Shown here piece by piece: positions 5,777-26,583 of a DNA stretch of 64,000 nucleotides (position 1 is the first letter of the stretch; the number at the start of each line of letters is the position of its first letter). The translations under genes were made by a program, and so were the position numbers. The stretch covers positions 6,727-70,726 of the forward strand of contig JAOTTD010000004.1 of the NCBI GenBank assembly GCA_029864565.1, in the 5' to 3' direction. Under the pieces are notes generated by a model. It was given only the letters and a program-made list of their open reading frames with translations. It was not told the origin of the DNA and did not search any database. The stretch is from Thermoplasmata archaeon. Lineage in GTDB: Archaea > Thermoplasmatota > Thermoplasmata > UBA10834.

Positions 5777-6076
5777 CCTGCAGTCGCAGCAGATGAAACG
5801 AGGGTCTAAAATGGAAACGTCTGACACCATCCCCCAGAAGATGCTGGTAAGGGGCCTCTGAGGTAGGTTTCATATGGAATCTATTTATAGTTGGATTTCG
5901 ACAAGTTTATATAGTGCACCACCAATATATCAGTTGGGAAATTTTGGGCTAGTTGTTAGAGTGCATCCCATCCCTTCTGACAAGGCTAGCCCTTCCCTTC
6001 CCTTTTTTTGTAAGTTTTCGAGCCTTGCATAAGCTATTTATCCAACTCCCATGCTTAGTGCGACGGGACTGCGTCC

Positions 6077-8019: not shown

Positions 8020-8442
8020 TGAACCGGCAATCGCATGGGGGTCGGACGCGTGTTCGTCCCCGCCATTGCCATTGTCTGGCAGTACATCGTATTTCAAGAC
8101 GAAGCGACCGTTGGAGAAGCGTATCACGGCCGATTTGAGCTTGCACCGATAAAGACGAACCCTCCTGCCTTTGTAGACCTCTTTCTCGCGATCGACGGAT
8201 ATCAGCCCGACCTGCTCAAGCTCGTGAATCCTGCGATAGCACGCAGCAATGGGTATCCTGCACACCTTGCTCAACCTCTGAGCGGAAACAGGGGATTCGT
8301 ATGTGTAGGCGAGGATCTTCTGCGAGTAATCGTCCGCGAGAAGTCTCGATACGGTCTTGGATCGGTCTTCCGGTGTCATCGCATCCTCAATGAAAAGAGT
8401 CATTCGGGCATTTAAGGTGGTTTTCTTCAGGTTATCAGTCAT
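8011..8442 (-). CDS. Winged-helix (ArsR/TrmB-like) DNA-binding protein, paralog of 2791-3192
   Basis: SAQRLSKVCRIPIAACYRRIHELEQVGLISV. The C-terminal half also parallels the paralog (FSNGRFVLKY vs LHNGRLRIQM). Confidence 0.6.
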   Translation of the reverse strand: MTDNLKKTTLNARMTLFIEDAMTPEDRSKTVSRLLADDYSQKILAYTYESPVSAQRLSKVCRIPIAACYRRIHELEQVGLISVDREKEVYKGRRVRLYRCKLKSAVIRFSNGRFVLKYDVLPDNGNGGDEHASDPHAIAGSSA

Positions 8443-8673
8443 GATAACACACTATGCATATCCAGGCAGGCCCTTCTCACGTGTCGATCTGCGGAAATTC
8501 GGTTTGACGCGGAATTGTGTTGATTCCTTCATTCTGAAGTGAATCGGGATATTTCCATGCCGAATTCAAGCCGGTTGATCTATCCTTGGCAAGAATCCTT
8601 ATCTCCTGCTGAGAGGATGAGCCGGCAAATGGAAATGGCCATGAGTGATTGAGACTTGGATGAGGTGAGCGCA

Positions 8674-9447
8674 ATGACGGAAATGAATTTCAGAGAGATT
8701 GGAGAGCTTTTGGCGACTGCATTTCGATTGACAACACGGCCGCTGGCAGTATACGGATCTGAAACTCTGCCCTCCGGTACTGTCCATGTTCCGGAAGTGA
8801 ACCGGTGCCTTGCCGCTTCATTGTACAAGATGGCGGCCGAAGAAGAGCTATCTGCAATCTACGTCACTGGAGACTCACGGGAAGGTTGTTGCCCAGGAGG
8901 ATTAACTCATACAGGATTCCTACCTGGAAATGAATTCACCAAATACTTCGTATCCACGGGAACAAAGGATTTCAGGGAAGGGGCAGCAGAATATCTGAAA
9001 TCTAGCCCGGAAATCTTTGAACGGTGTCAGGCGGCGTTAGGCAAGATCACTCCGCCAGGCAAGTATCTCATCATCCAGGCATGCGAAACGCTTCCCGATA
9101 GGATGCCCGAGGTCAGGTCGATTTGCTGTTTCGGCGCCGCCGAGCAGATCCGGAATTTGGCGGCACTGGTCCATTTTGACCGCGACGACCCATTCTCACC
9201 GGTGATTGTTCCGTGGGGTCCTTCATGTTCGACCTTTATCTCATACCCGGCTGGAATGTGTGAGAAAGCACCAAAGAATACTGCATTTATGGGTCCCGCG
9301 GACCCTACACAAAACAGGAACATCCCCCCAGAAATGATGGCACTCGGAATTCCAGCCGAAATGGCGGTGAGGATGGTTGGAAATCTGGGCCTTTCATTTA
9401 TTAGCAGGAGACCACAAGTTGCATTTCCCAATCATGAAAGAGGGTGA
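8674..9447 (+). CDS. DUF169-like protein (uncertain)
   Basis: About 257 aa. Cys-containing blocks (EGCCPGG, GPSCSTF) and overall length resemble DUF169 as I recall it. ORF track start is 8656; the ATG at 8674 is likelier. Confidence 0.4.
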   Translation: MTEMNFREIGELLATAFRLTTRPLAVYGSETLPSGTVHVPEVNRCLAASLYKMAAEEELSAIYVTGDSREGCCPGGLTHTGFLPGNEFTKYFVSTGTKDFREGAAEYLKSSPEIFERCQAALGKITPPGKYLIIQACETLPDRMPEVRSICCFGAAEQIRNLAALVHFDRDDPFSPVIVPWGPSCSTFISYPAGMCEKAPKNTAFMGPADPTQNRNIPPEMMALGIPAEMAVRMVGNLGLSFISRRPQVAFPNHERG

Positions 9448-9701
9448 AGGGGTCTGCGAGGGGTAATTGACCATTCTCTTGGGGAAAAAGGCCACAAGAG
9501 CGAGGGCCAGTTATACCACTGCGTGTCTAAACTCGACGGTGAGTGCGTTCAAATCGGCCGTCAGACACCCATCGAGGACGATTTCCCTGAATCATACTTA
9601 ACGCAACAGTGGCGTGACATGCATCATTACTTGTATGAAGACCCGTTAAACCCCTTTGCGATAAGTGCTATGAGTGCTTTCGCGAAAAAGGAGAAGAAAC
9701 A

Positions 9702-9887
9702 ATGAGTTACGGCAATTATGGAGGCGGCAGCCGTAGACGTGACTCAGGTCCCAGGGAGATGCACAAGATAAAGTGCTCTGACTGCGGAGCTGACGCGGAG
9801 GTCCCGTTCAAGCCTACAGAGGGAAAACCGGTCTACTGCCAGACTTGCTTCCAGAAGCACCGACCCCCACGAAGAGACAGATTCTGA
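9702..9887 (+). CDS. Small CxxC-x17-CxxC zinc-binding protein
   Basis: CSDC followed by exactly 17 residues (GADAEVPFKPTEGKPVY), then CQTC. Gly/Arg-rich N-terminus. An AGGAG lies upstream. Confidence 0.6.
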   Translation: MSYGNYGGGSRRRDSGPREMHKIKCSDCGADAEVPFKPTEGKPVYCQTCFQKHRPPRRDRF

Positions 9888-10180
9888 GCGTCCAGTTCAT
9901 TTTCATGAATTATCGTTCAATTCGTTCGAATCCGCAAATCACTTCGAGATCCTTTTCATTCCTATCGTATCAGATTCGAGCTTCATCGATCAGAAACGGA
10001 TTCTGTCCCCGAATCGGCTTACTGGCTATAATTCTGATTTATCACCCATGATGACTTCCCGATGAATAGGGCACACACTGACGAAGGGGCCGAGAGGCCC
10101 TAGTGACCTGGTTTAATCACAGTTTCATCCGCGAAAACATTATCTGCCCATGACATATCTCCTCATGAGAAGTGGCGAAC

Positions 10181-11518
10181 ATGCCAGTATGTCCTTTGGA
10201 TTTCAGATACGGCCGCGCTGAGATGAAGGCCATTTTCGACGAGGAAAACCGCCTCCAGAAGCTTCTCGACGTCGAAGCAGCACTTGCCTTAGCCCATGCA
10301 AAGGTTGGCAACATCAAGCAGGACCACGCTGACATCGTGAAGAAGACCGCCTCCGTGAGGTTCGTCAAGCTCTCTAGGGTGCAAGAGATTGACGCCGAGA
10401 TCAACCACGAAATCACAGCGATAATCAGGGTCCTAAGCGAACAATGCGGTGAAAGCGGCAAGTACGTCCACCTGGGCGCCACATCGAACGACATACTCGA
10501 CACGGCCGCGGCGCTTCAGCTAAAAGACGCCATCTCGATAATCGAGAAAGGTTTGGAGGCCCTGAGGCTGACTCTCGCGAAGCGGGCGAAAGAGAACCGG
10601 GACACCATAATGATTGGCAGAACGCACGGTCAGTACGCATTGCCTATTACGTTCGGTCTCAAGATCGCCAACTACGCGCTCGAGATTCATAGACACGAGC
10701 AGAGGCTGTGCGAATGCAAAACCAGGGTATTGGTGGGCAAGATGAGCGGTGCCGTAGGCACCGGTTCTGGTTTCGGAGCGATGGCGGTGGAGATTCAAAA
10801 GGCAGCCATGGCGAACCTGGGATTGGGGGTGGAAGATGGTCCAACACAAATTGTAGCCAGGGACCGATACGTGGAGCTCATGGCGGTTCTCGCCAACATC
10901 GCGACTTCGATAGAGAAGTTCGCCACAGAGATAAGGAATCTACAGCGTGGCGAAATAGGCGAGGTCGCCGAACCGTTCGACGACGTGGTCCAGGTTGGCA
11001 GCTCCACCATGGCTCACAAGCGCAATCCTGTCATGGCGGAAAACGTCTGTGGTCTCGCGCGTATCGTTCGCGGATTCATGACGCCTGCGATGGAGAGCGC
11101 GATTCTATGGCATGAACGCGACCTAACCAACTCCTCAGCCGAGAGATTTTTCATCTCCCATTCGTTCATTCTTCTCGATGATATAGTCGCGAAGACGGAG
11201 AAGATGTTCAGGAACCTCGTTGTCAACAAGGATAGAATGCTCGAAAATCTAAGAAAGGCGGGAAGTGTGATAATGGCCGAGTCGGTAATGATGGCCTTAG
11301 TGTCCAAGGGGATGGGACGCCAGGATGCCCATGAACTAATCAGGAGGTGCAGCATGGACTCGCAGAAGGCATGCGAGGATTTCAAATCATACTTGATAGC
11401 GAACGAGAGCGTCGCGTCACTTCTAAGCGAAGAGGAGCTTGATGGCGTTCTCGACCCGCATTCGTACCTTGGCAGTGCTGGGGCCACTGTGGACAATATA
11501 ATGAGGATCGTCGCATAA
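10181..11518 (+). CDS. purB: Adenylosuccinate lyase
   Basis: PLDFRYG at the N-terminus, the fumarate-lyase signature region GSSTMAHKRNP, and about 445 aa. ORF track start GTG 10172; the ATG at 10181 is likelier. Confidence 0.92.
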   Translation: MPVCPLDFRYGRAEMKAIFDEENRLQKLLDVEAALALAHAKVGNIKQDHADIVKKTASVRFVKLSRVQEIDAEINHEITAIIRVLSEQCGESGKYVHLGATSNDILDTAAALQLKDAISIIEKGLEALRLTLAKRAKENRDTIMIGRTHGQYALPITFGLKIANYALEIHRHEQRLCECKTRVLVGKMSGAVGTGSGFGAMAVEIQKAAMANLGLGVEDGPTQIVARDRYVELMAVLANIATSIEKFATEIRNLQRGEIGEVAEPFDDVVQVGSSTMAHKRNPVMAENVCGLARIVRGFMTPAMESAILWHERDLTNSSAERFFISHSFILLDDIVAKTEKMFRNLVVNKDRMLENLRKAGSVIMAESVMMALVSKGMGRQDAHELIRRCSMDSQKACEDFKSYLIANESVASLLSEEELDGVLDPHSYLGSAGATVDNIMRIVA

Positions 11519-11564
11519 GCAAAGCTAGATATACTGGACCGAGATTCAACAGCATTCTATCAGA

Positions 11565-11639
11565 GGGCCCTTAGATCAGTGGAAGATCGCTTCCTTCGCA
11601 AGGAAGAGGCCGTGGGTTCAAATCCCACAGGGTCCACCA
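11565..11639 (+). tRNA. tRNA-Ala (anticodon CGC), CCA encoded
   Basis: The cloverleaf folds by hand: acceptor GGGCCCT/AGGGTCC with the G3:U70 alanine identity pair, D stem GATC/GATC, anticodon stem CTTCC/GGAAG with loop TTCGCAA, and T arm GTGGG-TTCAAAT-CCCAC. 72 nt plus CCA. Confidence 0.93.
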
Positions 11640-11641
11640 TT

Positions 11642-11667
11642 CCTGAGAAAAGGCCATAGGGGCGGAG
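11642..11667 (+). repeat. Motif copy 1: CCTGAGAAAAGGCCATAGGGGCGGAG, immediately 3' of tRNA-Ala
   Basis: Read directly. Near-identical copies at 15864-15888 and 16608-16632; degenerate copies at 14047-14072, 15677-15700 and 18687-18710. Confidence 0.85.
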
Positions 11668-11708
11668 AGAAGGCCTTAAGGCATCGAAGGCGATTCCGAC
11701 CTGAGGAG

Positions 11709-12107
11709 ATGGTCTTTACGAGGACGGGCGCTCTGATTGTAGTGGTATTGGGGATTGCGATTGGCGCGATTGGACTGATTACAGCGGTCGTCTTCCAGAA
11801 TGCTGCCAATTCAATGAGCATTTGGGAGAGGTTCACAAGTCCAAGTGAATACGATTTCAACATGGAGATGGTGGGCATTGGATGGGTAGTCGCAATCGTG
11901 GGCGGAATCATGTTCATCATAGGATTGGTGCTGCTTCTCGTATCTGTGCAGAGCTCTCAGGGGAAGAGCAATGCCCAGGCCGGTATGATGTCGCCCGCGC
12001 CCGCCGCAGATGGCATGGGCGGTTTCTGCCAGTATTGCGGAAGGCCAGTATCCCCTGACGCAGTATGGTGCCCTGGATGCGGCAGGTCACTGAAGAAACA
12101 GCCTTGA
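11709..12107 (+). CDS. Small membrane protein with C-terminal zinc ribbon
   Basis: Two hydrophobic helices (ALIVVVLGIAIGAIGLITAVVF, VVAIVGGIMFIIGLVLLLV), then CQYCGRPVSPDAVWCPGCG. Confidence 0.5.
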   Translation: MVFTRTGALIVVVLGIAIGAIGLITAVVFQNAANSMSIWERFTSPSEYDFNMEMVGIGWVVAIVGGIMFIIGLVLLLVSVQSSQGKSNAQAGMMSPAPAADGMGGFCQYCGRPVSPDAVWCPGCGRSLKKQP

Positions 12108-12242
12108 TTTTGACCCTAAAGCCTCTCAGAGGCATTCAGGTGCACCTGTACCTCATCGACCATTGCGCCAGGTTCTTGGCCGAATCGAGAAATCGTTGGC
12201 GTTTGCGGAGGGAATAGGTCAGGAAACTCATCCTTCTGAGCC

Positions 12243-13025
12243 CTATACGCCCTGGAGACCCTTTGATAAACTGTAGAGCTTCCATCCGAAGAGGAGAGGG
12301 AAGATGATGAAGGCGACAAGCACGAAGGGGATGACCGAGTCGGAGTCGACCCCAAAGACGGACATCCCTGCGACCACAGCCACCCCGAGCACCATACTCA
12401 CCCCGCCAAAGCGCTTGCCAAAGGCTGGGGACCCGAGCATGGCCACTCCGAGGACGATGAAACCTATCGCCATGAGGATGAACCCTACGGTGTCCGTCTC
12501 ATTGAATATGCCCTGGGTCGCCTGCCACATGAGGACGAGTGTCGCCTGCTCCTCGGGGGTCGTTCCGGGAGCGTGATAGAGGTCGGAGATCGGGTTGAAA
12601 GCAATATTCGGGAGCGCTCCGACAGCGAGCACTGCGAGACCCACAAGGCCCAGGCCGCTCCCGAAGAGAGCGGGCGCGACGCTCGTCCCGCGGAGAGCCC
12701 GATACAAGGCAAGGAAGAGTGTGACCAACAAGATGACGGCCACCAGGTAGAGGCCCTCCCCCACCGCAATGGCCGCTCTGTCCTCGGGGAACCTCATGAC
12801 CAATCCCTCGGGGTCGGCAGGCTCCTGTGGCACCAACGCGAGTAGTATGACGGCTGTAAGAATGAAGAAGATTGGTACCAGCATTCCGGCCAGACCGCCC
12901 CATCGCAGAACGCTCTTCTCGTCTCCCATGTACTTCCCAGCCGAGATAACGGAACTTTTCCTATATAACATATCGCGAATCCCGAAAACGATTTCTCGGA
13001 AGTCTCGCGCCTCTAGTATGATCAA
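12243..13025 (-). CDS. Polytopic membrane protein, function unknown (possibly DUF4386-like)
   Basis: Five to six hydrophobic segments. The likelier start is Met33 (12929, MGDEKSVLRWGG...). Confidence 0.5.
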   Translation of the reverse strand: MIILEARDFREIVFGIRDMLYRKSSVISAGKYMGDEKSVLRWGGLAGMLVPIFFILTAVILLALVPQEPADPEGLVMRFPEDRAAIAVGEGLYLVAVILLVTLFLALYRALRGTSVAPALFGSGLGLVGLAVLAVGALPNIAFNPISDLYHAPGTTPEEQATLVLMWQATQGIFNETDTVGFILMAIGFIVLGVAMLGSPAFGKRFGGVSMVLGVAVVAGMSVFGVDSDSVIPFVLVAFIIFPLLFGWKLYSLSKGLQGV

Positions 13026-13231
13026 TCCCAGAAAACCGAGAAACGGCTCATCAATTCATGCGCATATCTTTGCACACATGAACGAGCTATCTGGGAGGCC
13101 GGGCATGCGCCGATGGGCCCACCACTCATCCGGGTCGAAAGTCCAAGAATGCTGTATTGCACCCCATCGAATACAGTCGTCCCGTGGGGAGTGATGGCGG
13201 TTGAAAATAGGAAAAGCGAAAGGGGTTTGGT

Positions 13232-13327
13232 CATCTCTCGATTCTTCTCCTCGACGAAGATGCCCTAACAAGGGCATTTTGGGGTGTGAGCCAGTCAGTT
13301 TCGTGGTCCCTTATCCCAATGTGGCCA
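13232..13327 (+). repeat. Degenerate copy of the ~100-nt repeat ending in a decayed tRNA-Ala 3' core
   Basis: Same block order as 13943-14043 and 15758-15858: ATCTCTCGA..CCTCG, hairpin ATGCCC-N6-GGGCAT (13260-13277) followed by TTTGG, AGCCAGTCAGTTTCGTGG, then TTATCCCAATGTGGCCA (12/17 match to the core). Confidence 0.7.
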
Positions 13328-13380
13328 TATTCGAAAGTGGTTTATATGCGCGCTGACTTCATGACGTGGGGGAGTTCGAG

Positions 13381-13926
13381 ATGAATATTCTAAGGCTAAG
13401 TGCTGCCATCTTCTGTTCAGTTGCCCTTCTGTCCATTATGCTCGTAGATACACCATGTTCTGTAGAAGCACAAGGAGAACATCTGCTTACGGACACTGTT
13501 TTGATTCCAGGAAGGACCGACTACTCTGTTGAGATCACCATGGATGTGAATGAACGATTATTCTGCCGCTCAAACACCGACTATGAGACTCCACTTCGCC
13601 TTCAGTTCGCCAATCCCGACGGAACCTTGAGGCTCATGTCCACCTCAACACAAGGAAGCGATTACACCGAGTACTACTATGTGACAGTGAGGGAGAATTA
13701 CTACGTCTATTTCGATACGGGCGCGGAGGGAGTCTATCGAATAACATGGGAGAACACAAATTTGGCGAATGCTTCACTGGACTATTTTGTCGTGAACGCA
13801 GGATACATTCCACCTGAAGAAGACCCCCCACTTGTTAATGCGGCAGTGCTTGGGCTGGGGATTGTTGTGGCTATTGAAGCGGCAATCATGGTGGTATTAC
13901 TAACCCAAACACGCAAAAGGAAATGA
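13381..13926 (+). CDS. Secreted, C-terminally anchored protein, function unknown
   Basis: N-terminal signal-like helix (LSAAIFCSVALLSIMLV), a Tyr/Thr-rich beta-type middle, and a C-terminal TM plus basic tail (VVAIEAAIMVVLLTQTRKRK). Confidence 0.5.
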   Translation: MNILRLSAAIFCSVALLSIMLVDTPCSVEAQGEHLLTDTVLIPGRTDYSVEITMDVNERLFCRSNTDYETPLRLQFANPDGTLRLMSTSTQGSDYTEYYYVTVRENYYVYFDTGAEGVYRITWENTNLANASLDYFVVNAGYIPPEEDPPLVNAAVLGLGIVVAIEAAIMVVLLTQTRKRK

Positions 13927-13942
13927 TACAAAGGGTTTTCAC

Positions 13943-14043
13943 GCTATCTCTCGATACGGTTCCTCGGCAAGAAATTCCGGTCCCTGGAATTTTCGACCAC
14001 TAGCCAGTCATCTTCATGGCACCTAATCCCACAGGGTCCACCA
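13943..14043 (+). repeat. 101-nt direct repeat ending in an exact 19-nt copy of the tRNA-Ala 3' end (att-like)
   Basis: 91/101 identical to 15758-15858 by hand alignment. Internal hairpin AAATTCC-N7-GGAATTT at 13972-13992. Core AATCCCACAGGGTCCACCA at 14025-14043. Confidence 0.9.
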
Positions 14044-14046
14044 ATT

Positions 14047-14072
14047 CTGAGAAGAAGCTGTGGGGGCAGAAG
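14047..14072 (+). repeat. Degenerate motif copy (CTGAGAAGAAGCTGTGGGGGCAGAAG)
   Basis: Sits in the same position relative to the tRNA-end core as copies 1 and 4. Partial identity only. Confidence 0.5.
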
Positions 14073-14231
14073 GGCTTTAGGAGACGGGGGCAGACGACAA
14101 GTTCATCATTTCCATCCCACAAGGGGAATGGAGACCCACATCAACCCGGCACTAACCCCAGGGAAGACCGACTGACTCTGAGTCGGTCGCTCAGATCCCG
14201 TGTCAGGAGTCGACTCGGCGGACAATCACGG

Positions 14232-15623
14232 TCAGCTCAACAAGGTGTCCACGCACTCAGCAAACACCGCGGTGTGTCTGTCAACGTCCTTCGCTGTCGT
14301 AGATGGCGAGATCAGAGCCATGTTGTGGAACGGCGTCATGAGTATGCCTCTGTTCAGCATCATGAGGTGCAGAAGCTTCTCGAGCTCAGCATCCTTTGCC
14401 ATGTCGGCTTCAGCCCCGTCTCTCGGTGCGTTCTGACAGAAGTGGTACTCGATGCGCACTCCCAAGCGGGCGACATGCCACGGGACTCCCCTGCTCTTGA
14501 TCACGTCGTCGACGCCCTTCTCGAACCGTTCAGCCAGCGGCATCATTCTATTGAAGGCCTGCTTGGTAATCACCTTTTCAAGAGTCGCCCTCATCGCGGC
14601 AACCGCGAACGCGTTGCCTGTCAGCGTGCCTCCGAGCCCGCTCTCGTCCGTGCCATCGCTCAATATGCGTTCCACAATCATGTCCGATACATATTGGCTC
14701 ACTCCGAACGCAGCAACGGGCACCCCGCTCGCGAGCGGTTTGCCCATGGTTATCATGTCGGGTTTGAGACCCTGGACTCCGGTGTAGCCCCCCACGCCGC
14801 AGCATATGGTGTGGGTTTCGTCTATGATCAGAAGAGTCCCGGCCCTGCTGGTCAGTTCCCTGAGCGCATCATGATAGCCTGGGTCCGGGAGTATGATGCC
14901 CCGATTGGTCATCGCCGGTTCCATCAGGACGCATGCGACGTCCTCTGGCGACAGAGCCTCTTCCAGCGCACGGACGTCGTTGAACTGCACGGCCTTCGTG
15001 GTAGTTGACGGAGGCACGGGTGGTCCTATGTTCCCTCCCCGGGGAACGACAGCTCCGCCTTCCAAGTTGACGAGGGTCTCGTCCACCGTGCCGTGATAGC
15101 AGCCGTGCACTACAAGGACGTACTTCCTCTTCGTGACCTCCCTCGCAAGCCTTATCGAGAATCTGTTCGCGTCAGTGGCGGTCATCGCGATCTGCCAGTA
15201 CGGCAATCCAAACCTCCGAGCCAGCTCCTCGCCCACCCAGATGGAGTCCTCGGTTGGCAGCATCGTCGTGATGCCTCTGGAGACCTGCCTCCGCACGGCA
15301 TCGACCACAGGCTTTGGTGAATGGCCGAACATGGAGCCCGTATCTCCGAGGCAAAGGTCGAGATATCTGTTGCCGTCCACGTCCTTGAGGAAAGCACCCC
15401 TCGCCTCGGAAACGAAGACGGGGTAGGGCCCGGCCCATCGGACCATCCAGTTCATTGGAACTCCGGCGAGAAGCGATTTCTTGGCTCTTTGAAACAATGC
15501 ATTTGACTTCGGTCTGGATTCCACGAATCTCTGCTCTTCCTTCGCCTGCAATTCTCTCATTTGAGACCGATTAATGCTGACCATGAGCGATTCCTTCTTA
15601 TTGCCAGATTGCATGTGGTCCAT
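14232..15623 (-). CDS. Class III (PLP-dependent) aminotransferase, glutamate-1-semialdehyde aminomutase-like
   Basis: DGNRYLDLCLGDTGSMFGH, the IIDETHT block, and a candidate PLP lysine in TMGKPLASGVP. About 463 aa. Confidence 0.85.
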   Translation of the reverse strand: MDHMQSGNKKESLMVSINRSQMRELQAKEEQRFVESRPKSNALFQRAKKSLLAGVPMNWMVRWAGPYPVFVSEARGAFLKDVDGNRYLDLCLGDTGSMFGHSPKPVVDAVRRQVSRGITTMLPTEDSIWVGEELARRFGLPYWQIAMTATDANRFSIRLAREVTKRKYVLVVHGCYHGTVDETLVNLEGGAVVPRGGNIGPPVPPSTTTKAVQFNDVRALEEALSPEDVACVLMEPAMTNRGIILPDPGYHDALRELTSRAGTLLIIDETHTICCGVGGYTGVQGLKPDMITMGKPLASGVPVAAFGVSQYVSDMIVERILSDGTDESGLGGTLTGNAFAVAAMRATLEKVITKQAFNRMMPLAERFEKGVDDVIKSRGVPWHVARLGVRIEYHFCQNAPRDGAEADMAKDAELEKLLHLMMLNRGILMTPFHNMALISPSTTAKDVDRHTAVFAECVDTLLS

Positions 15624-15676
15624 TTATCATTATGCGGAAAGAAGGCCGACAGTAAGCAATGCTTGTGGCAAGATCC

Positions 15677-15700
15677 GCGAAAAAGCTCATAGGGGAGGAA
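15677..15700 (+). repeat. Degenerate motif copy (CGCGAAAAAGCTCATAGGGGAGGAA)
   Basis: Shares GAAAA-GC-CATAGGGG-GGA with the consensus. Lies just upstream of the third ~100-nt repeat. Confidence 0.45.
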
Positions 15701-15757
15701 ATGTAAAGGGTTTCGTGAGGGGCATTCAACCCCTCCTAGAAAGACAACGGGTTTGAG

Positions 15758-15858
15758 GCTATCTCTCGAGTTGGTTCCTCGGCAAGAAGTTCCGGCCTGT
15801 GGAATTTTGGAGCACTAGCCAGTCATCTTCGTGGCACCTAATCCCACAGGGTCCACCA
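15758..15858 (+). repeat. 101-nt direct repeat ending in an exact 19-nt copy of the tRNA-Ala 3' end (att-like)
   Basis: 91/101 identical to 13943-14043. Hairpin AAGTTCC-N7-GGAATTT at 15787-15807. Core at 15840-15858. Confidence 0.9.
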
Positions 15859-15863
15859 TTTCG

Positions 15864-15888
15864 CTGGGAAAAGGCCATAGGGGCGGAG
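15864..15888 (+). repeat. Motif copy (CTGGGAAAAGGCCATAGGGGCGGAG)
   Basis: Read directly. Follows the tRNA-end core exactly as copy 1 follows the real tRNA. Confidence 0.85.
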
Positions 15889-15990
15889 GGAGATTATTCC
15901 CGCACAGAAAGGAGTCTGAGAGCAAGCAAGAGACGAAATTGCCGAACCAATTCGGGGTCAACTTAATTAGTATATGCCTAGCTTCCCGGC

Positions 15991-16479
15991 ATGATGAGTG
16001 AGAAGATGGGCGATGTGGCCGTCCCTGATGAGGAGATGGATGTCATCAGCACTCCTGGCTTTGCCTGGAGAGTGGGGCTGTCCATACTCGTCGTGTTTGG
16101 CTGGCTAGCATTCTTGATAATATGGCTGTTCTTCTATGCTGAGGATTATGATGTGTGGCAGAACATCGCAATCTTCCTAGTCTCCATAATCGTCGGCATA
16201 GGCGTTCTTGCGGCTGCTTGGGTCAGTTGGGGCATCAAGTACGCGTCCAAGTCCGGCAAACAAGACACCAAGTTCAAGAAACCGAAGGGGGCGTGGATCT
16301 TGAACACTGTTGCTGGATTTGGCTGGCTCTTATTCCTCATAGTATGGCTTTACTTCTACGCGGGAGACTATAGCGGCTACCAGAACCTGGCCATCTTCAT
16401 CACATCACTTCTCGTGCTTGGAGCTGTAACGAGCAGCGCATGGGTTGTTCGATGGATTAGAACTTCAAGAAAGTGCTAG
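15991..16479 (+). CDS. Four-helix membrane protein built from an internal tandem duplication
   Basis: FGWLAFLIIWLFFYAEDYDVWQNIAIFLVSIIVGIGVLAAAWVSWGIK aligns with FGWLLFLIVWLYFYAGDYSGYQNLAIFITSLLVLGAVTSSAWVVRWIR. Confidence 0.55.
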   Translation: MMSEKMGDVAVPDEEMDVISTPGFAWRVGLSILVVFGWLAFLIIWLFFYAEDYDVWQNIAIFLVSIIVGIGVLAAAWVSWGIKYASKSGKQDTKFKKPKGAWILNTVAGFGWLLFLIVWLYFYAGDYSGYQNLAIFITSLLVLGAVTSSAWVVRWIRTSRKC

Positions 16480-16607
16480 GTATCGAGGAAGACATGTCTC
16501 GTTGATCGGAATGAGTTGAAGCGGTTTTTGCAGACGGAGACTCTGAACTCGAACGAAGCCGGCAGATAAGGTAGCCTGGCGGGTCTAGCGGCTGCATCTA
16601 GATTCCT

Positions 16608-16632
16608 CCTGAGAAAAGGCCATAGGGGCGGA
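16608..16632 (+). repeat. Motif copy (CCTGAGAAAAGGCCATAGGGGCGGA) without an adjacent tRNA-end core
   Basis: Read directly. Identical over 25 nt to copy 1, with a CCT duplication just upstream. Confidence 0.85.
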
Positions 16633-16721
16633 AGGAAGACTTATGTGAACCACCCTCAATCACAGTCCCTATGGGCAAGAGGAATTGGAAGGAAGAGGTT
16701 GTTGTCGCCAAGGGGAACGAA

Positions 16722-17384
16722 ATGGCTTCTGATATTAAGCCCGTTTACTTGGGCCGCATTATTGGCAATTGTTACATTGTAAGAACAGATATCGGTTCTA
16801 TCCTGATTGACACCGGAAGAGCCTCTAAGCGCGCCAAACTTGAAAAGGAACTTCGTGGCGCGGGCTGCAAACCAGGCAATCTCAACCTTATCATTTTGAC
16901 ACATGGAGATTTTGACCACACGGGCAATTGCGCTTACCTCCGCGAAAAGTTCGGCACAAAGATAGCCATGCACTATGACGATTCTGGAATGGTCGAACGC
17001 GGAAATATGTTCTGGAACAGAAAAACCGGAAATCTTACCATCAGAGCAATCGTCAATGTCTTCTTCAGGATAAAAAGATTCAAACCCGATTTTACTATAG
17101 ATGAGGGATACGACCTCTCCGAATATGGGCTCAATGCCAGAGTTCTTCATCTTCCGGGACACTCAAAGGGCTCGATTGGGATTCTGACAGCCGGTGGCGA
17201 CCTGTTCTGCGGTGACCTGTTCACCAATACGAACGAACCAAAGCTCAATTCCATTATCGACGACCCAGTGGAAGCGAGTGCCAGTGCGAAGAAACTGAGA
17301 AGATACGAAATCAAAACAGTCTATCCTGGCCATGGAAAGCCTTTTCCTATGAGCTCTTTGACTAGAAGTCTAAGGGATCCATGA
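16722..17384 (+). CDS. MBL-fold metallo-hydrolase
   Basis: ILTHGDFDHTGN (HxHxDH-type metal motif) and later LPGHSKGS and PGHG. ORF track start 16671; the ATG at 16722 (MASDIKPVYLG) is likelier. Confidence 0.8.
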   Translation: MASDIKPVYLGRIIGNCYIVRTDIGSILIDTGRASKRAKLEKELRGAGCKPGNLNLIILTHGDFDHTGNCAYLREKFGTKIAMHYDDSGMVERGNMFWNRKTGNLTIRAIVNVFFRIKRFKPDFTIDEGYDLSEYGLNARVLHLPGHSKGSIGILTAGGDLFCGDLFTNTNEPKLNSIIDDPVEASASAKKLRRYEIKTVYPGHGKPFPMSSLTRSLRDP

Positions 17385-17557
17385 GAGCACAATCGATAAA
17401 GGAAGAAAAAGGACGTCTGGCTATTCAAGGTGAAGACCCCACAGACTCCGCCATTCTTCCAGCTGATCTCAATCTCCGTCTCTTCCGGCAAAGCGACTGC
17501 TCGAAGATATCTCGCATATGTCCGCATGACCGCCACTGTTCTGCTCTGACGAAGTCA

Positions 17558-18676
17558 TCACTTTGCGCAGATGGCCTTCCTGTGGAACGTGAATGTCCTC
17601 TTCACCTCGAAGCCGACTTTCCTGTAGACTTCCATAGCACTGTGCTTGTTCTCGACTTCGGTATCCACCAAAACTTCGTCGATACCCAGATCTCGCACCT
17701 GGGCCAAGCCCCTCGTAAGCAGCGCGCTGGCTATACCCTTATGCCGCCATCTTTCAACAACACAGACAACCCACGCATGGGCAACCTTCCTGCATGTCCG
17801 CTGAATTTCCTCGTCGTTGACTAGCATCTCCACAATGCCGACAGGGTCGTCGCCATCCCATGCGACCTTGATCAATTCGGGCCTGAAAGTGGACGATCTA
17901 ATCCAGTTGCGATAAGCCTCCTCGCTCCATGTGTACTGATTGAACCACGACTCGCCCAGGAAGCATTCCCTGTAGAGCTCCCATAATTCGTGGTATTCGT
18001 CCTCTTGAGGAGGCCTGACTTCTATCCCCTCAGCCAAGCTGCTGATTGCCACCTCGGATAATCTCTCGTGGGTCATCTCGAGCAGGTGCCAGACAGAGGC
18101 ATAACCCATCGTGTCAACGATGCGCTTCCAGTCGTTCGGCTCATCGTACGTCCAGACCTGCAGGTATTTCTCGTCTGCGAAGTCATGCCTGGAGGATATC
18201 TCCTCAAGGCGTTTTTCGTTATCGTGAAACAGCGCTTCTCGGATTCCCCTGCCCCTCCAAGCAGGAAGGAGATGGACAGAATGAGCGTACACCTTTACCC
18301 TGTCAACCTCGTTGTCCCAGGCTATCTGAGAGTATCCGACCGTGCTCTCGTTGACTTCGACAAAGACTATGTCTAAGCGCGGGTCTCTGCCTTTCACCGC
18401 TGAAAACCGCGCCCTTATCTCCTCTTCAGACTCTACCCAAACGACACCGTCCGCCTTCCAGCTAAGCTGGCTTATTTCAGACATCTTCTGGAAATCTGAA
18501 TCGTCAACGAATGCCCTAAACCGCAGACCCTCCACATTCGGAGTGTCCATCTTGACCGCTATCTCACTTCCTTCATTCAAATTATCCTCATCCAACCGTC
18601 GGTCCAAGTCACTTCGAGCTATCTTGCACGTAAGCGCCTTCTCATATACGAAGTTCGCCCACGCGGCTTCGGTCAA
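17558..18676 (-). CDS. Two-domain GNAT-family N-acetyltransferase (MshD-like architecture)
   Basis: Two acetyl-CoA motif A-like segments: LPAWRGRGIREALF and VERWRHKGIASALL. Confidence 0.75.
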   Translation of the reverse strand: MTEAAWANFVYEKALTCKIARSDLDRRLDEDNLNEGSEIAVKMDTPNVEGLRFRAFVDDSDFQKMSEISQLSWKADGVVWVESEEEIRARFSAVKGRDPRLDIVFVEVNESTVGYSQIAWDNEVDRVKVYAHSVHLLPAWRGRGIREALFHDNEKRLEEISSRHDFADEKYLQVWTYDEPNDWKRIVDTMGYASVWHLLEMTHERLSEVAISSLAEGIEVRPPQEDEYHELWELYRECFLGESWFNQYTWSEEAYRNWIRSSTFRPELIKVAWDGDDPVGIVEMLVNDEEIQRTCRKVAHAWVVCVVERWRHKGIASALLTRGLAQVRDLGIDEVLVDTEVENKHSAMEVYRKVGFEVKRTFTFHRKAICAK

Positions 18677-18686
18677 TAGGCATCCT

Positions 18687-18710
18687 CTGGGAATTTGCCA
18701 TAGAGGAGGA
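18687..18710 (+). repeat. Degenerate motif copy (CTGGGAATTTGCCATAGAGGAGGA)
   Basis: About 17/24 match to the consensus CTGAGAAAAGGCCATAGGGGCGGA. It is the last copy I can find. Confidence 0.4.
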
Positions 18711-18825
18711 TTAGCGATTCTTCCCTTCTGCCTATGTCAGAAGAAGTAAGTCCGGTGCGAGCGTTCTGCCTGGGATCTCTTCGGATGCAATCGGAGCGAG
18801 GAGGAAAAGGCCTATCCTCCAAATG

Positions 18826-19026
18826 TCATCTGAACAGCCTCCGAACTCCCACGCAGTATGACGCCATCACGATTGCCCCCCATATCAATGCGGCATAGAA
18901 AAGGAAGCCGGCCAACGGCAACAGCAGATAGTACTTGAATCCGGAGGACCGCCTCTTGAAACCATCCTTTCTGAGAGGCATCCCAGATTCAATCTTCGCG
19001 TAGCTGAGAGTCCAACGATGAGTCAT
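18826..19026 (-). CDS. Possible small membrane protein
   Basis: 66 aa with one long hydrophobic stretch (YYLLLPLAGFLFYAALIWGAIVMASY). No other support. Confidence 0.25.
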   Translation of the reverse strand: MTHRWTLSYAKIESGMPLRKDGFKRRSSGFKYYLLLPLAGFLFYAALIWGAIVMASYCVGVRRLFR

Positions 19027-19218
19027 CGAACCACCAAATGACGATTCTTCTATTCGATATAAATTCCTGCTGCAGGAATCCCGTCACGGCGGACTCCGGC
19101 AAACAGTCCGCCAAAAGAGACTTGTATAGCGATGTTGATGTCGCGCCGTCAGGTTGCGGTTAGAGGCGTTTTCTATCACGCTGCACTGAGGGAATAATGG
19201 GCCTATCGACGCCCGTTA

Positions 19219-19926
19219 ATGAAGCGCTCGGACGGCGAGAGCATGGTTCAGAAAGGGGACATCAGGCAAGAGGAAGTCGAGCGGAAGCTGAAACTTGAGT
19301 ATCTCTACGGCGAGAGGGATCGCACGAGAAGACTCCTCGATGATTTGCACACGCTCATTGCTCATATGAACGATCCCAAACTCCATACGAAGGCGTTGCT
19401 GCAAGAAGCTGCTGATGTAATACACAAGGACCTTTGGATAAGGGAAGTCACAATAGGATTGAGGAGCCCTTCGGACAGCAAGTACAGGTACGTTGTAATG
19501 TCTGGGCTTCGCCCAGAAGCGTGGCGGGCGCATGAAGTGATTGAGTACACGCACGAGGAATTCAACGACCCAAGTTTATTCAACGGCAGATGGATAAGCG
19601 AATGCACGAAGGTCTTCCTGGCTGAGGACGAGCCGTTCCTGGAGGGCGAGGAGGAAACCTTCAACCGTCCCATCCTCCTGAAAGCCCGTCGCCGAACGCC
19701 TGACGACTGCATAGAAGGCGATTACCTGGACGTGAACATCACCGCAGAAAACGGGAATTTGGTCGGATGGATCGAAATATCCGGAACGAGAGAAGGCAAG
19801 TTCCCTGATGCGATCTCCATTAGATGGCTTGAACTGATCGCGTCGCTGCTCGCAATCGCATTGCAGCGGGACCGAGAGGGTGAGCCAAAAAGGAAGGTCC
19901 GAGCCATCGACGAGCGCTCTGGCTGA
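19219..19926 (+). CDS. Hypothetical protein, possibly GAF-like sensor fold
   Basis: N-terminal coiled segment, then an alpha/beta region ending GNLVGWIEISGTREGKFPDAISIRWLELIASLLAIAL, which resembles a GAF C-terminus. Weak call. Confidence 0.35.
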   Translation: MKRSDGESMVQKGDIRQEEVERKLKLEYLYGERDRTRRLLDDLHTLIAHMNDPKLHTKALLQEAADVIHKDLWIREVTIGLRSPSDSKYRYVVMSGLRPEAWRAHEVIEYTHEEFNDPSLFNGRWISECTKVFLAEDEPFLEGEEETFNRPILLKARRRTPDDCIEGDYLDVNITAENGNLVGWIEISGTREGKFPDAISIRWLELIASLLAIALQRDREGEPKRKVRAIDERSG

Positions 19927-19935
19927 CCGCCGAGA

Positions 19936-21210
19936 TCAGGGCAATTCGCATGATTCGGAGACGATGCTCTCGCCAGAGCTGCCTAACTTGTTGACGGCGA
20001 CCTTGAGGAGTGTCGGCGCCACCAGGACAGATACCACGCCCATAATGATTATTGCCGAGTACAGAGGTGTGTCAATGATGCCCTCCGTGAGCCCGTATAG
20101 AGCTATGATCATCGCCACCTCTAGCCTCGCGGCCATCCCGAGTCCGACGGATATCGATTCCCTTCGGTTCATGCCGGTCAGCCATGCGGGGATGCCTCCT
20201 CCTATCAGTTTCGACAGCATCGCGACTGCGGCCAGCGCGATTGCGAATATCCACAACTCGGCGGGCAGTCTGATATCGACGAGGATTCCCAGGGAAAGGA
20301 AGAAAATAGGTGCGAAAACCCACTCGAGGAATGCGATACCTTCCATGAACTGCTTTCTGTACTCACACGCCGAGAAGCTTGTGCCAGCTATGAATGCGCC
20401 TACGATAGCAGATATCCCTATCAGCTCGGAAATGAATGCGTAGAGAAATGCGAACGACAGTGCCAGGAGGAACCCGCTCTCCTTCATCCCGCGCGCCATG
20501 CCGATCCTTTCAACCCATCCGATGACGCGAACGACGACCTTCATGCCCAAGTACGACCCCAGCGCTACAAATGCGACAGCCGCGATAGTTATCTGGGCGA
20601 GTCCAGTTACGTCCACCCCTTCGCCGGTGGCAACACCTGCCGTTATCGCGAGTACAACCATCCCCAAGATGTCGTCAACCACAGCCGCGCCGAGTATCGT
20701 CTTCGCCACTTTGGAGCCTATGATACCCATCTCACGCAGGACGCCGGCCGTGATTGCCACGCTCGTAGCCACGAGCGCAGTGCCGATGAAGATGGATTGA
20801 TAGAATCTGCTGTAGTCAGCCCCTGGTTCTGGCAAGAGATACCATGCAAGAAGGTATCCCGCCACCCATGGGAGCGTTATACCGCCAATGGCGATCAATA
20901 TGTTCTTCTTGGTGTAAATCTCCCTGATATCGCATTCGAGACCGATCATGAACAGCATAATGATCGCTCCGAAAGGTGCGAACAATGTTACGAGGTCGCC
21001 CGCGTCCCCCTCTTCAGCTACGACTAGCCCTAGCAGACTCGGGCCTATGATTATGCCAAGGGCTATCTGACCGACGACCTTTGAGAACCCCAACCGCCTG
21101 AATACCATGCTCGACAGCATCGCCAAGGCGAGGAGCAGGGCGAGCTGGAACCACATGCTGCTTATGGTGCTGTCCCACAGTTCCTCGAGCATTGCACTGG
21201 AACGGGTCAT
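19936..21210 (-). CDS. Cation:proton antiporter (CPA2 / Kef-NapA-like Na+/H+ exchanger family)
   Basis: About 12 TM segments. The N-terminal FQLALLLALAMLSSMVFRRLGFSKVVGQIALGIIIGPSLLG is typical of the family. Confidence 0.85.
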   Translation of the reverse strand: MTRSSAMLEELWDSTISSMWFQLALLLALAMLSSMVFRRLGFSKVVGQIALGIIIGPSLLGLVVAEEGDAGDLVTLFAPFGAIIMLFMIGLECDIREIYTKKNILIAIGGITLPWVAGYLLAWYLLPEPGADYSRFYQSIFIGTALVATSVAITAGVLREMGIIGSKVAKTILGAAVVDDILGMVVLAITAGVATGEGVDVTGLAQITIAAVAFVALGSYLGMKVVVRVIGWVERIGMARGMKESGFLLALSFAFLYAFISELIGISAIVGAFIAGTSFSACEYRKQFMEGIAFLEWVFAPIFFLSLGILVDIRLPAELWIFAIALAAVAMLSKLIGGGIPAWLTGMNRRESISVGLGMAARLEVAMIIALYGLTEGIIDTPLYSAIIIMGVVSVLVAPTLLKVAVNKLGSSGESIVSESCELP

Positions 21211-21269
21211 TTCAGGACTAAAGCTTTGCGGTCCTGGCGGTCAGGTGAAGAAGACTACGATTGAAGTCT

Positions 21270-22265
21270 TTATCTCTTCCGCAGCTTGGGGTTGAATATC
21301 TCGTCTAGTGCGTAACCGAGGAACGTGAATGCGAGTACAATCAAGACTATGCACATTCCCGGAACGATTATCCACAGATAGAGGCCATTGAACATGGCCT
21401 CTGCGAGGAACGCATCCTCGAGCATGTTTCCCCAGGTCACCACTGCTTTAGGCGAAGGTCCTAGGCCTATGAAACTCAGTGTGCTCTCCGAGAGGATTGA
21501 GAGCGCTATAGTAAGTATGGAATTGGCGAACACGAGCGGGAAGACATTCGGAAATACATGCTTCCTCACGATGTAGTAGTCGCCCGCTCCAATCGACCTC
21601 GCCCTTTCGATGAACGCGCGTTGCTTCAAAGAGAGTACCTGTGCTCTGACGATTCTTGCTGTGCTCGACCATCCCGTAATCCCAATGACCAGAATCACTT
21701 TCTCGACGCTTGGTCCACCAGGTAGCAAAGTGGCGAATACTATCATCAGTACAAGCCAGGGTATCACGAGGAAGACATCGGTTACCCTCATGAGGATCTC
21801 GTCACGCCAGCCTCCCCAGAACCCGCTCATCAAACCGACGAACGAACCAAGTCCCATCGAGACGACCGTAGCCACGAGTCCGATCTCAAGCGAAACCCTC
21901 GCTCCGTAGATGGTCCGGGCAAGAATGTCGAACCCCCTCCGATCGGTCCCCAGCCAGTGATCGGAGGACGGTGCTGCAGCCATACCCTCCGGTCCTACCA
22001 CGTCAAACGGACCATACGCGGATTCCCATCCTGCGATGGCCTTGAGTATGAGCATCATCTGGGGCGCGAACACCGCCATCGCTACGAACGCCATCAGTAT
22101 CGTCAGGCCCAGCATGCCCATTCGGTTGTGCCTGAAAACCTTCCAGGTCTCGAGGGTCTTCTTCTTCAGAAGAAGGAGCTTCTCCTTTGTTGGCTCCGAT
22201 ATCACTGTATGCACCCCCGAGCGGTTTGAGACATGGTCAACCCCCCATCTTGACCCGTGGGTCAA
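21270..22265 (-). CDS. ABC transporter permease, peptide/nickel type (OppC/DppC-like)
   Basis: Binding-protein-dependent transport inner-membrane component pattern (SLKQRAFIERARSIGAGDYYIVRKHVFPN). Confidence 0.85.
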   Translation of the reverse strand: MTHGSRWGVDHVSNRSGVHTVISEPTKEKLLLLKKKTLETWKVFRHNRMGMLGLTILMAFVAMAVFAPQMMLILKAIAGWESAYGPFDVVGPEGMAAAPSSDHWLGTDRRGFDILARTIYGARVSLEIGLVATVVSMGLGSFVGLMSGFWGGWRDEILMRVTDVFLVIPWLVLMIVFATLLPGGPSVEKVILVIGITGWSSTARIVRAQVLSLKQRAFIERARSIGAGDYYIVRKHVFPNVFPLVFANSILTIALSILSESTLSFIGLGPSPKAVVTWGNMLEDAFLAEAMFNGLYLWIIVPGMCIVLIVLAFTFLGYALDEIFNPKLRKR

Positions 22266-26273: not shown

Positions 26274-26583
26274 TGCTAGGCTCGACCGGGACGTTCGGCG
26301 TGTCCTTATACACCAAAATCGTCGACAGTGGGGGTGACAGCTGGGGACGTCGTAACCGAGTCTGCGTAGGTCCAGGTATCGACAATGAGGCCTTGTCCAA
26401 GGGGGTTGAAGGTGGCTCTGTGTCCAGCTGGAGGGCGGGACTCTCTGACTTTGTCGCGGGGATCGGGTCAGGCCCTGACGGGAACAGCCTTACCGCGAAC
26501 TCTCAACGCTCCTAGGGTAGCGGGGCCGAGAAGATATCTGGGCTGCCTGCGTGAACGAGGCCGGCAACTCCAGTGGCCTAGCA
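26274..26583 (+). ncRNA. Signal recognition particle RNA (7S / SRP RNA), ~310 nt
   Basis: The 5' TGCTAGGC pairs with the 3' GCCTAGCA. The 5' segment GCTAGGCTCGACCGGGACGTTCGGCG resembles archaeal 7S 5' ends as I recall them. A helix-8-like segment GGGTCAGGCCCTGACGGGAACAGCC compares with the bacterial GGTCAGGTCCGGAAGGAAGCAGCC. No credible ORF, and a TATA lies upstream. Ends are accurate to about +/-5 nt. Confidence 0.75.

Follow-up and report, generated by a model that had tools for sequence, protein, structure and literature searches.

We analyzed a 64,000-nucleotide stretch of DNA from a Thermoplasmata archaeon of the UBA10834 lineage (GCA_029864565.1, contig JAOTTD010000004.1, positions 6,727 to 70,726), hereafter referred to as the window, and studied a short motif that recurs in the variable island behind its tRNA-Ala(CGC) gene. 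The consensus is written (T)GAGAAAAGGCCATAGGGGCGGA(G), where GAGAAAAGGCCATAGGGGCGGA is the 22-mer core. The motif marks the edges of units of one or two genes, and dozens of copies are also present in at least 16 related, uncultured Thermoplasmata genomes, which points to an undescribed cassette-type gene-exchange system. The island extends from the tRNA gene to the conserved opp permease genes, which begin at 21270, and consists of the following parts (positions within the window).

11565–11639, plus strand: tRNA-Ala(CGC) (ARAGORN; Rfam, 69 bits), the head of the island on the attL side; its 3′-end sequence is 11621–11639
11643–11667, plus strand: motif copy 1, exact (CTGAGAAAAGGCCATAGGGGCGGAG), 3 nt past the CCA end of the tRNA
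11667–11711, plus strand: class 1 leader, GAGAAGGCCTTAAGGC..GGCGATTC..GAGGAG-ATG
11709–13025: unit 1, a Zn-ribbon membrane protein (11709–12107, plus) and a DUF4386 membrane protein (12243–13025, minus) (Pfam)
13215–13329, plus strand: arm repeat X3, degenerate, with a hairpin and TTTT at 13260–13280
13333–13352, plus strand: GAAAGTGGTTTATATGCGCG, a canonical B recognition element (BRE)/TATA sequence located by alignment, about 30 nt before the ATG at 13381
13381–13926, plus strand: unit 2, a secreted/membrane-anchored protein
13931–14043, plus strand: arm repeat X1, with a hairpin and TTTT at 13973–13993, terminating in a tRNA-Ala 3′-end copy (14025–14043)
14049–14070, plus strand: degenerate motif copy, 6/22 mismatches to the main consensus, weight-matrix score 18.9
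14232–15623, minus strand: unit 3, a class-III aminotransferase (Pfam), reversed relative to the motif
15678–15699, plus strand: motif copy of variant type CGAAAAAGCTCATAGGGGAGGA, 6/22 mismatches to the main consensus
15746–15858, plus strand: arm repeat X2, with a hairpin and TTTT at 15789–15808, terminating in a tRNA-Ala 3′-end copy (15840–15858)
15864–15888, plus strand: motif copy with 1 mismatch
15991–16479, plus strand: unit 4, a two-repeat membrane protein with its own TATA-like box at about 15965
16609–16633, plus strand: motif copy without an adjoining tRNA fragment, with 1 mismatch in the 25-mer and none in the 22-mer
16722–18676: unit 5, a metallo-β-lactamase (MBL)-fold protein (16671/16722–17384, plus) and a GNAT acetyltransferase (17558–18676, minus) (Pfam)
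18689–18710, plus strand: degenerate motif copy, 6/22 mismatches to the main consensus, weight-matrix score 15.0
18711–21269: distal variable region with a GAF-like protein (19219–19926, plus) and a cation/H+ antiporter-like gene (19936–21210, minus)

Searching the window with up to three mismatches returned the copies at 11643, 15864, and 16609, compared with none in 100 shuffles; the 22-mer core added the three sites with 6 mismatches at 14049, 15678, and 18689. A weight matrix built on 285 related copies ranked exactly these six sites highest in the whole 64 kb (scores of 46.6, 45.1, 42.1, 18.9, 18.3, and 15.0), whereas the best scores of 200 shuffled windows have a 95th percentile of 12.1. 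All six are on the plus strand. The six copies in 7 kb that an earlier note on this DNA had listed are therefore the best matches in the window; the unit boundaries given there are correct, and its positions needed shifts of no more than 1 to 2 nt. The next-best site (9483–9504, in a second small island upstream of purB) is borderline, with a score of 10.6. A further, heavily diverged copy is present at 13333–13352, at the homologous position after the third arm repeat.

The order purB–tRNA-Ala(CGC) is kept in about 20 metagenome loci, with 76 to 88% protein identity. The DNA between the tRNA gene and the opp ABC-transporter genes differs in content and ranges in length from about 1 kb in L110 and 3.5 kb in L105 to 9.6 kb in the window (L-numbers, L002 to L124, are labels of the compared archaeal loci). 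In several relatives that have the same tRNA-Ala and no inserts, no motif follows the tRNA; the motif thus arrives with the inserts and lies outside the tRNA gene's own signals, and a tRNA trailer or terminator was ruled out on this basis. As expected for an accretion island, direct repeats of the 3′ part of the tRNA flank the inserts, with the intact tRNA at one end, and related genomes have another insert or none at this tRNA. The tRNA 3′-end copies and the arm repeats of about 100 nt mark tandem integrations. The repeats of about 117 nt at 13931–14047 and 15746–15862 are 87% identical to each other; the degenerate third copy, X3, is 88% identical to its counterparts in L010/L055 and terminates in a decayed tRNA 3′-end copy (13312–13329). 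Each att copy in the window is followed by the motif as the first sequence on the element side.

When one genome per prokaryotic species was scanned for the exact 20-mer, 98 stretches matched, 84 archaeal and 14 bacterial. The bacterial matches are coding coincidences, all of them inside long open reading frames (ORFs), such as the ...RPYGLFG end of branched-chain amino-acid permeases. The archaeal stretches come from 17 assemblies, 16 of which are labeled Thermoplasmata, Thermoplasmatota, or "Methanobacteriota"; the carriers include the UBA10834 type genome and three closed chromosomes. One carrier is a "Thorarchaeota" bin, in which two short contigs (L022 and L024; JAEOUG01, FT1_004) hold exact motifs and Thermoplasmata-type arm repeats, probably as a result of mis-binning rather than cross-phylum spread. 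The DNA fetched from the 17 archaeal assemblies holds about 250 motif occurrences, and among the 22-mer copies in 660 kb of archaeal loci, 99 are exact, 70 have one mismatch, and 42 have two (none in shuffles), numbers that have to be read with the selection of these loci by exact motif match in mind, which inflates both the counts and the apparent conservation. The motif is frequent genome-wide but always stands in the same kind of context, rather than in unrelated ones, and in archaea it does not lie inside conserved coding sequence, the two settings that the earlier note had named as incompatible with a cassette-boundary role.

Across 130 different contexts, information content is at background outside positions −3 to +22, and nothing is conserved beyond; this drop at both edges shows that the motif is a discrete site of 22 to 25 nt. 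Upstream lies a pyrimidine-rich stretch, often with a T that gives a TGA overlapping the motif start. In a sister lineage (L113, 4444–8880, and L119), every copy of a six-copy tRNA-Ala array has the variant consensus GAAAAGCCCATAGGGGAGGA. The window copy at 15678 is of this variant type, with 2/20 mismatches to the sister consensus, which suggests either two co-evolving site "alleles" or a unit imported from the sister lineage.

Motif copies cluster, with up to 10 per 8 kb, and lie on one strand within each cluster. The intervals from motif to motif (n = 157) have a median of 573 nt and are typically 0.3 to 2 kb long. A single ORF fills most of 129 intervals, co-oriented with the motif in 82 and reversed in 47. 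The starts of co-oriented genes cluster about 32 and about 49 nt past the motif, behind a Shine–Dalgarno-like GAGGGG, and about 25 nt separate the stop codon from the following motif. A reversed gene ends about 30 nt past the motif and leaves about 100 nt free upstream of its start. The cargo, 824 array ORFs, consists mostly of singletons. Recurrent families are clostripain-like peptidases and NosD/β-helix surface proteins, which are the largest, and GAF-like and small zinc-ribbon membrane proteins; MFS transporters, radical-SAM enzymes, GNATs, and dehydrogenases also occur. Cargo of the window is found in other arrays as well: the MBL gene has a counterpart in L025 that forms a single motif-bounded unit (5651–6255, 73%), homologues of unit 4 (15991–16479) are array units in L026 and L069, and the GAF-like family of 19219–19926 occurs as a cassette in L014/L098.

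Exchange of units was assessed by all-against-all blastn, in which 22% of homology-block ends fell at a motif edge (within 10 nt), compared with 2.8% for random positions. Thirty high-scoring segment pairs correspond to exactly one motif-to-motif unit common to different metagenome-assembled genomes (MAGs) with unrelated neighbors, for example in L014/L098 (96.4% over 786 nt) and L026/L044 (95.8%). Two cases of gain or loss of cassettes were found. L076 and L054 differ by an insertion or deletion (indel) of one 965-nt ACT-domain cassette plus one motif, within flanks that are 95 to 98% identical; in the short allele, a single hybrid motif unites a variant of the upstream copy and the downstream copy's 3′ end. 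A second indel comprises four units, present in L069 at a place where L026 carries a single motif. As in integrons, the arrays thus consist of short cassettes, each gained, lost, and shared on its own. Rare variants at motif positions 7 to 22 travel with the downstream flank and those at positions 1 and 2 with the upstream flank (few data), which suggests that the motif belongs to the 5′ end of the unit.

In archaeal promoters, a purine-rich BRE lies directly upstream of an AT-rich, 8-bp TATA box located about 26 nt before the transcription start. The promoters of tRNA and signal recognition particle (SRP) RNA genes in this clade read gcAAAGcTAGAAATA, cAAGGTATAAATGG, and GAAAGGGTTATAGAACC (tRNA-Val), and 12 of 17 positions of the motif, GAAAAGGCCATAGGGGC, agree with the last of these. 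The motif has a purine-rich, BRE-like part (GAGAAAAG) at the place of the BRE and an ATA core at the place of the TATA box, but it has G/C instead of the A/T expected in the box. Behind the oldest arm repeat, GAAAGTGGTTTATATGCGCG (13333–13352) takes the exact place that the motif has in the homologous L010, L055, and L045 junctions. Motif and leader together (11642–11712, 71 nt) are 79 to 93% identical in about 10 loci, and this homology ends at the ATG, before unrelated ORFs. As a BRE/TATA element, the motif would probably start transcription about 16 to 18 nt downstream, leaving a leader of 15 nt or about 32 nt with a Shine–Dalgarno sequence, which fits both classes of start distance; the distance to the Shine–Dalgarno sequence and ATG is compatible with a start about 23 nt after the box. 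The window also holds the archaeal SRP RNA gene (26274–26583; Rfam, 167 bits), which is preceded by a TTTTATAC box at a distance of about 30 nt and served as a reference for the clade promoter consensus.

On this evidence, the motif could be punctuation for expression only, a promoter built of a BRE and a weak TATA box whose antisense strand, GGCCTTTTCTC, acts as a T-tract terminator, while shuffling would reflect ordinary homologous recombination or slippage. On the terminator idea, antisense 3′ ends would lie at GGCCTTTTC. Apart from the likeness to the clade's tRNA and SRP RNA promoters and the canonical TATA box at 13333–13352, this explanation accounts for the two sharp motif-to-ATG distances, with a Shine–Dalgarno sequence and no space for another promoter, for the space that reversed genes keep in front of their own start and their stops close to the motif, and for the conservation of motif and leader up to the ATG of unrelated ORFs; the absence of a recombinase and of dyad symmetry (see below) also speaks for it. 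Promoters and terminators normally tolerate sequence variation, however, whereas 20 or more nucleotides of the motif are identical in over 100 copies from at least 16 species, with sharp edges, a conservation that far exceeds that of any ordinary promoter in tightness and length. Motifs are also present where no co-oriented gene follows, and those before reversed genes are conserved as well as those before co-oriented ones (1.47 versus 1.36 mismatches, p = 0.6). The lineage-wide switch to the variant consensus suggests a dedicated co-evolving partner rather than the general TATA-binding protein (TBP) and transcription factor B (TFB), the TATA equivalent is GC-rich, and the motif always lies at a boundary between conserved and variable DNA. 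We regard this explanation as the main rival, and as rather unlikely. The suggestion in the earlier note of a shared promoter or 5′ leader is thus borne out in its likeness to BRE/TATA and in the two fixed distances of co-oriented starts, but not for the reversed units, which make up 36% and have equally conserved motifs.

Beyond tRNA-Ala, the motif follows intact tRNA-Gly, tRNA-Pro, and tRNA-Leu genes and tRNA fragments of several types. Arms of the Gly, Pro, and Arg types encode the C terminus of a tyrosine integrase (...NSPLIE..TGYA*), and integrase 3′ ends form the arms in L029, L084, L103, and L124. In the Gly-type arm, the integrase frame, as read from class B sequences, can cross the tRNA fragment and end at the motif-overlapping TGA. 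The arrangement recalls archaeal integrases whose genes become disrupted upon integration; in the SSV-type ("suicidal") integrase, attP lies inside the integrase ORF, so that the gene is divided into int(N) and int(C) when the element integrates (PMC7253208). All 25 database homologues of the arm integrase are fragments of 87 to 220 residues next to tRNA ends, no intact episomal copy was found, and the tRNA-Ala-type arms of the window contain no recognizable coding sequence. The reverse complement of the repeat family that precedes tRNA fragments was found downstream of many intact tRNA genes (for Arg, Val, Ile, Pro, and Gly). A further repeat, TCCTTGGCTATTCCCGCGnnGAAACGCGTCTGAGAGCGTGC, directly precedes or follows motif copies in L002, L029, L040, L065, L067, L070, L084, and L085; it resembles the reverse complement of part of a tRNA with a long variable arm and may be another family of att fragments. 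In L020 (2625–4296), a 348-residue tyrosine integrase adjoins a serine-recombinase-like ORF (MKCAIYARVSK...) directly beside motif-bounded units, and this segment appears to be an intact mobile element.

The motif could also be purely an attachment-site arm, each copy being the element-side arm of attP from a separate tRNA-Ala integration of a small element and lone copies having lost the tRNA fragment by deletion. The motif does directly follow the tRNA and both of its 3′-end copies in the window, it is missing from naive tRNA-Ala loci, other loci have integrase remnants adjoining junctions of this kind, and the stacking of elements in tandem at tRNAs is well known (tycheposons, 10.1101/2020.12.28.424599; archaeal integrases, PMC7253208). 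Against this, an arm repeat or tRNA fragment lies upstream of only about 33 of 247 copies, which implies that most copies separate cassettes rather than elements. Arrays of 5 to 10 copies occur without any tRNA fragment, one and the same motif accompanies the cores of different tRNAs and a non-tRNA palindromic site, and the spacing between tRNA and motif varies. Repeated precise loss of arm and core is implausible, and the cassette polymorphism of L076/L054 points to exchange without an att core. Pure att arms are therefore improbable, clearly more so than punctuation. What remains of the element-side recombination flank proposed in the earlier note is that the motif follows the tRNA and its displaced fragments, is absent from insert-free relatives, and lies in a hypervariable island; given that about 85% of copies elsewhere have no tRNA fragment beside them and separate individual cassettes, it is more than an att arm.

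The high copy number, intergenic location, and near-identity of the copies would fit a selfish short repeat, either like repetitive extragenic palindromic (REP) sequences or miniature inverted-repeat transposable elements (MITEs) or a homing target, that spreads through intergenic DNA. Such a repeat is highly improbable, given that the motif has sharp edges and no flanking element and is confined to the boundaries of units in variable islands, with a single strand used within each array; there is no palindrome, terminal inverted repeat, or target-site duplication, and no RAYT- or transposase-like gene recurs, which also excludes REP/REPIN and MITE assignments.

The reading that we favor, and to which we give about an even chance, is that the motif is a cassette-junction element, both a recombination joint and a promoter-like head, of a clade-specific cassette system carried on tRNA-targeting integrative elements. 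Their targets would be the 3′ ends of tRNA genes, in this case tRNA-Ala(CGC), plus a few other sites. Within the element, the att core and the stop codon that closes the integrase-side arm would directly precede the motif, in the order integrase arm, att core, motif, cassettes, and this order would explain why the regenerated tRNA and every displaced fragment precede a motif. The cargo would consist of units of motif, short leader, and one gene, with all motifs in one orientation, that are gained, lost, and exchanged between arrays and species via recombination between motif copies. Candidates for the activity involved are short-homology recombination, a host recombinase that acts in trans, and an element integrase. 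In co-oriented cassettes, the motif would probably also start transcription, as outlined above.

Several observations weigh against a cassette-junction element, in addition to the way in which the loci were selected. No recombinase was found in or beside the window array or in more than 80 array loci, and no recurrent one is present among the 824 array ORFs; the only recombinase of the window (61067–61717) has 216 residues, consists of the catalytic domain only, and is encoded 43 kb from the array. Read directly, the motif has no dyad symmetry, its left and right halves being unrelated, and it has no hairpin partner; to our knowledge, this sets it apart from every characterized core site of a tyrosine or serine recombinase, and also from attC. 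The spacer between tRNA end and motif varies from 3 to 7 nt, which argues against a rigid core-type binding site of the tRNA integrase. The crossover position is based on very few informative variants, and no circular cassettes were found, the very short contigs that were checked having no terminal repeats. No exact motif occurs in IMG/VR, and the 71-nt module has no blastn match in phage and plasmid collections. As for the promoter-like head, the TATA-equivalent octamer CCATAGGG is GC-rich, unlike the real TATA boxes of the clade, and in reversed units a promoter would have nothing to drive.

The earlier note was correct in placing no recombinase near the array. The closest matches of the 216-residue recombinase in the PDB are XerA structures (5HXY and 4A8E), to whose C-terminal halves it aligns, and it is kept at 75 to 90% identity in more than 200 Thermoplasmata contigs. 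The surrounding order (thermosome, AT-rich gap, recombinase, RFC large subunit, Taw1, CPSF, proteasome) is the same in the window, CP070732, and CP070736, and this fixed synteny together with the single copy identifies it as a conserved core gene. In L025, a motif array begins at the far side of the AT-rich gap that adjoins this gene; the recombinase, 850 nt from the array, was considered as an integron-type integrase and rejected because it is the same single-copy core gene in fixed synteny. The gap itself (about 1.2 kb, non-coding, within the region 61067–63150), which the gene always adjoins, contains hairpins, for example attgcccctttaggggcaat at about 62027, and could be a dif or origin region or an invertible segment.

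Other types of site were considered as well. A hairpin partner for the motif within ±118 nt was not found beyond shuffled expectation, with no excess pairing; a folded, attC-like site was ruled out, since there is no complementary partner and the motif is conserved in primary sequence. The lack of dyad symmetry is also incompatible with a 28-bp Xer/dif-type site with inverted arms around a 6- to 8-bp spacer. RNA pairing of GGCCAU in the motif with AUGGC before start codons was rejected because the lineage with the variant GCCCAU shows no compensatory change. Only tRNA scores in Rfam at E ≤ 1 in the region 8000–21500, the motif belonging to no RNA family, and the spacing and content do not fit CRISPR.

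A bolder version of the cassette-junction reading, which we consider possible rather than probable, is a hitherto unrecognized archaeal cassette platform, analogous to integrons in function but of different construction, whose cassettes would carry a linear, sequence-conserved 22-nt site that serves as promoter and recombination site at once. Integrative elements would stack the cassettes at tRNA genes, and a dedicated, co-evolving recombinase would exchange them between species in trans. Candidates for this enzyme are the ...TGYA family of element integrases and the clade-specific, catalytic-domain-only XerA-like protein described above.

A second, smaller island in the window lies upstream of purB.

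8430–10055: second island, in which the palindrome GGTTATCAGTCATGATAAC (8430–8448) and a decayed repeat (10039–10055) flank a 1.68-kb insert

The insert carries a DUF169 gene (8656–9447) and small Zn-ribbon ORFs and is missing in four relatives (L105, L107, L110, and L113). A remnant of an integrase C terminus, LPGYA*, is present at 8452–8469 on the minus strand. In L103 and L117, this spot is occupied by arm repeats and a C-terminal integrase fragment, together with motif arrays that run the other way, on the minus strand. The second island belongs to the same element family and is an integration hot spot without a tRNA. The palindrome GGTTATCAGTCATGATAAC, located just upstream of the HTH_20 gene 8011–8442, looks like an operator of that gene.

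Within the tRNA-Ala island, part of the class 1 leader (11667–11711) is a degenerate half-copy of the motif, accompanied by a TTAAG box and a Shine–Dalgarno sequence. The DUF4386 gene on the minus strand has a probable start at about 12931 and its own TATA box. The unit 2 protein (13381–13926) belongs to no Pfam family, and an exact-protein look-up of the aminotransferase of unit 3 returned no record. The gene of unit 4 (15991–16479) contains an internal tandem duplication of 81-nt segments (16096–16176 and 16318–16398) that are 72% identical. The hairpin stems of the arm repeats differ yet stay complementary (ATGCCCT/AGGGCAT versus AATTCC/GGAATT), and TTTT follows; this structure looks like a terminator or a protein-binding palindrome. 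Another recurrent intergenic module, AAGGGTTT followed by a GAGGGG-N6-8-CCCCTC hairpin, is present in the window (15717–15735), L063, L070, L081, and L095, often between a motif and the next arm repeat; in the window, GGGTTT and the GAGGGG/CCCCTC hairpin (15717–15735) follow the motif copy at 15678–15699.

The hallmarks of integrons are an IntI integrase with an IntI-specific extra domain, encoded adjacent to the array, and attC sites made of imperfect inverted repeats (R″–L″...L′–R′). The arrays described here share with bacterial and archaeal integrons (PMC9668308) short, mostly single-ORF cassettes on the same strand, very diverse cargo, gain, loss, and sharing at the level of cassettes, and a conserved site at each cassette boundary. 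The archaeal integrons reported so far have canonical attC sites, and the paper that describes them makes no mention of Thermoplasmata (PMC9668308). As in clusters of attC sites lacking integron integrases (CALINs), many arrays have no adjacent integrase. In contrast to the folded, sequence-variable attC with its R and L boxes, the motif is linear, 22 nt long, and conserved in primary sequence. It appears to travel at the 5′ end of the cassette and is promoter-like, whereas attC lies at the 3′ end of cassettes that are usually promoterless. No IntI-type tyrosine recombinase adjoins the arrays, which also lack attI, are anchored at tRNA genes or att sites, and have 36% of their ORFs reversed. 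The arrays are thus integron- or CALIN-like in outcome yet lack both defining features of integrons, IntI and attC.

The pdif modules of Acinetobacter plasmids are Xer-dependent and are bounded by 28-bp XerC/XerD sites with inverted arms and alternating orientation. Like the units described here, they are discrete gene modules between short conserved sites, and they are moved by a housekeeping recombinase that is encoded elsewhere; the motif differs in having no dyad symmetry and always a direct orientation. With accretion islands, namely the tycheposons of Prochlorococcus (10.1101/2020.12.28.424599) and islands of SSV-type and pNOB8-type elements (PMC7253208, PMC8371274), the island shares a full tRNA at the proximal end, partial copies between inserts, fragmented integrases (here in related loci), the newest insert beside the tRNA, and hypervariability between relatives. 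However, accretion islands have no short conserved motif between cargo genes and are built from multi-kilobase elements with integration and replication modules, whereas here a motif is present, units are single genes of 0.3 to 2 kb, and one motif is common to elements that target different tRNAs.

Literature searches on integrons, cassettes, and UBA10834 returned no description of the motif or the arrays. Even on a modest reading, a super-conserved promoter/terminator module with recombinational shuffling would represent unusually clean natural modular expression cassettes. If the cassette-junction reading is true, a clade of sediment and soil Thermoplasmata (UBA10834 relatives, basal to Methanomassiliicoccales) would own a gene-capture system that is invisible to standard integron finders, which rely on an attC model and an IntI profile, and archaeal cassette exchange would extend beyond the attC/IntI paradigm. 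The motif would then provide a short, exact tag for flexible genes and cross-species horizontal transfer in metagenomes, and the system would explain the turnover of surface, membrane, and small zinc-ribbon proteins in genomes of 1.4 to 2 Mb.

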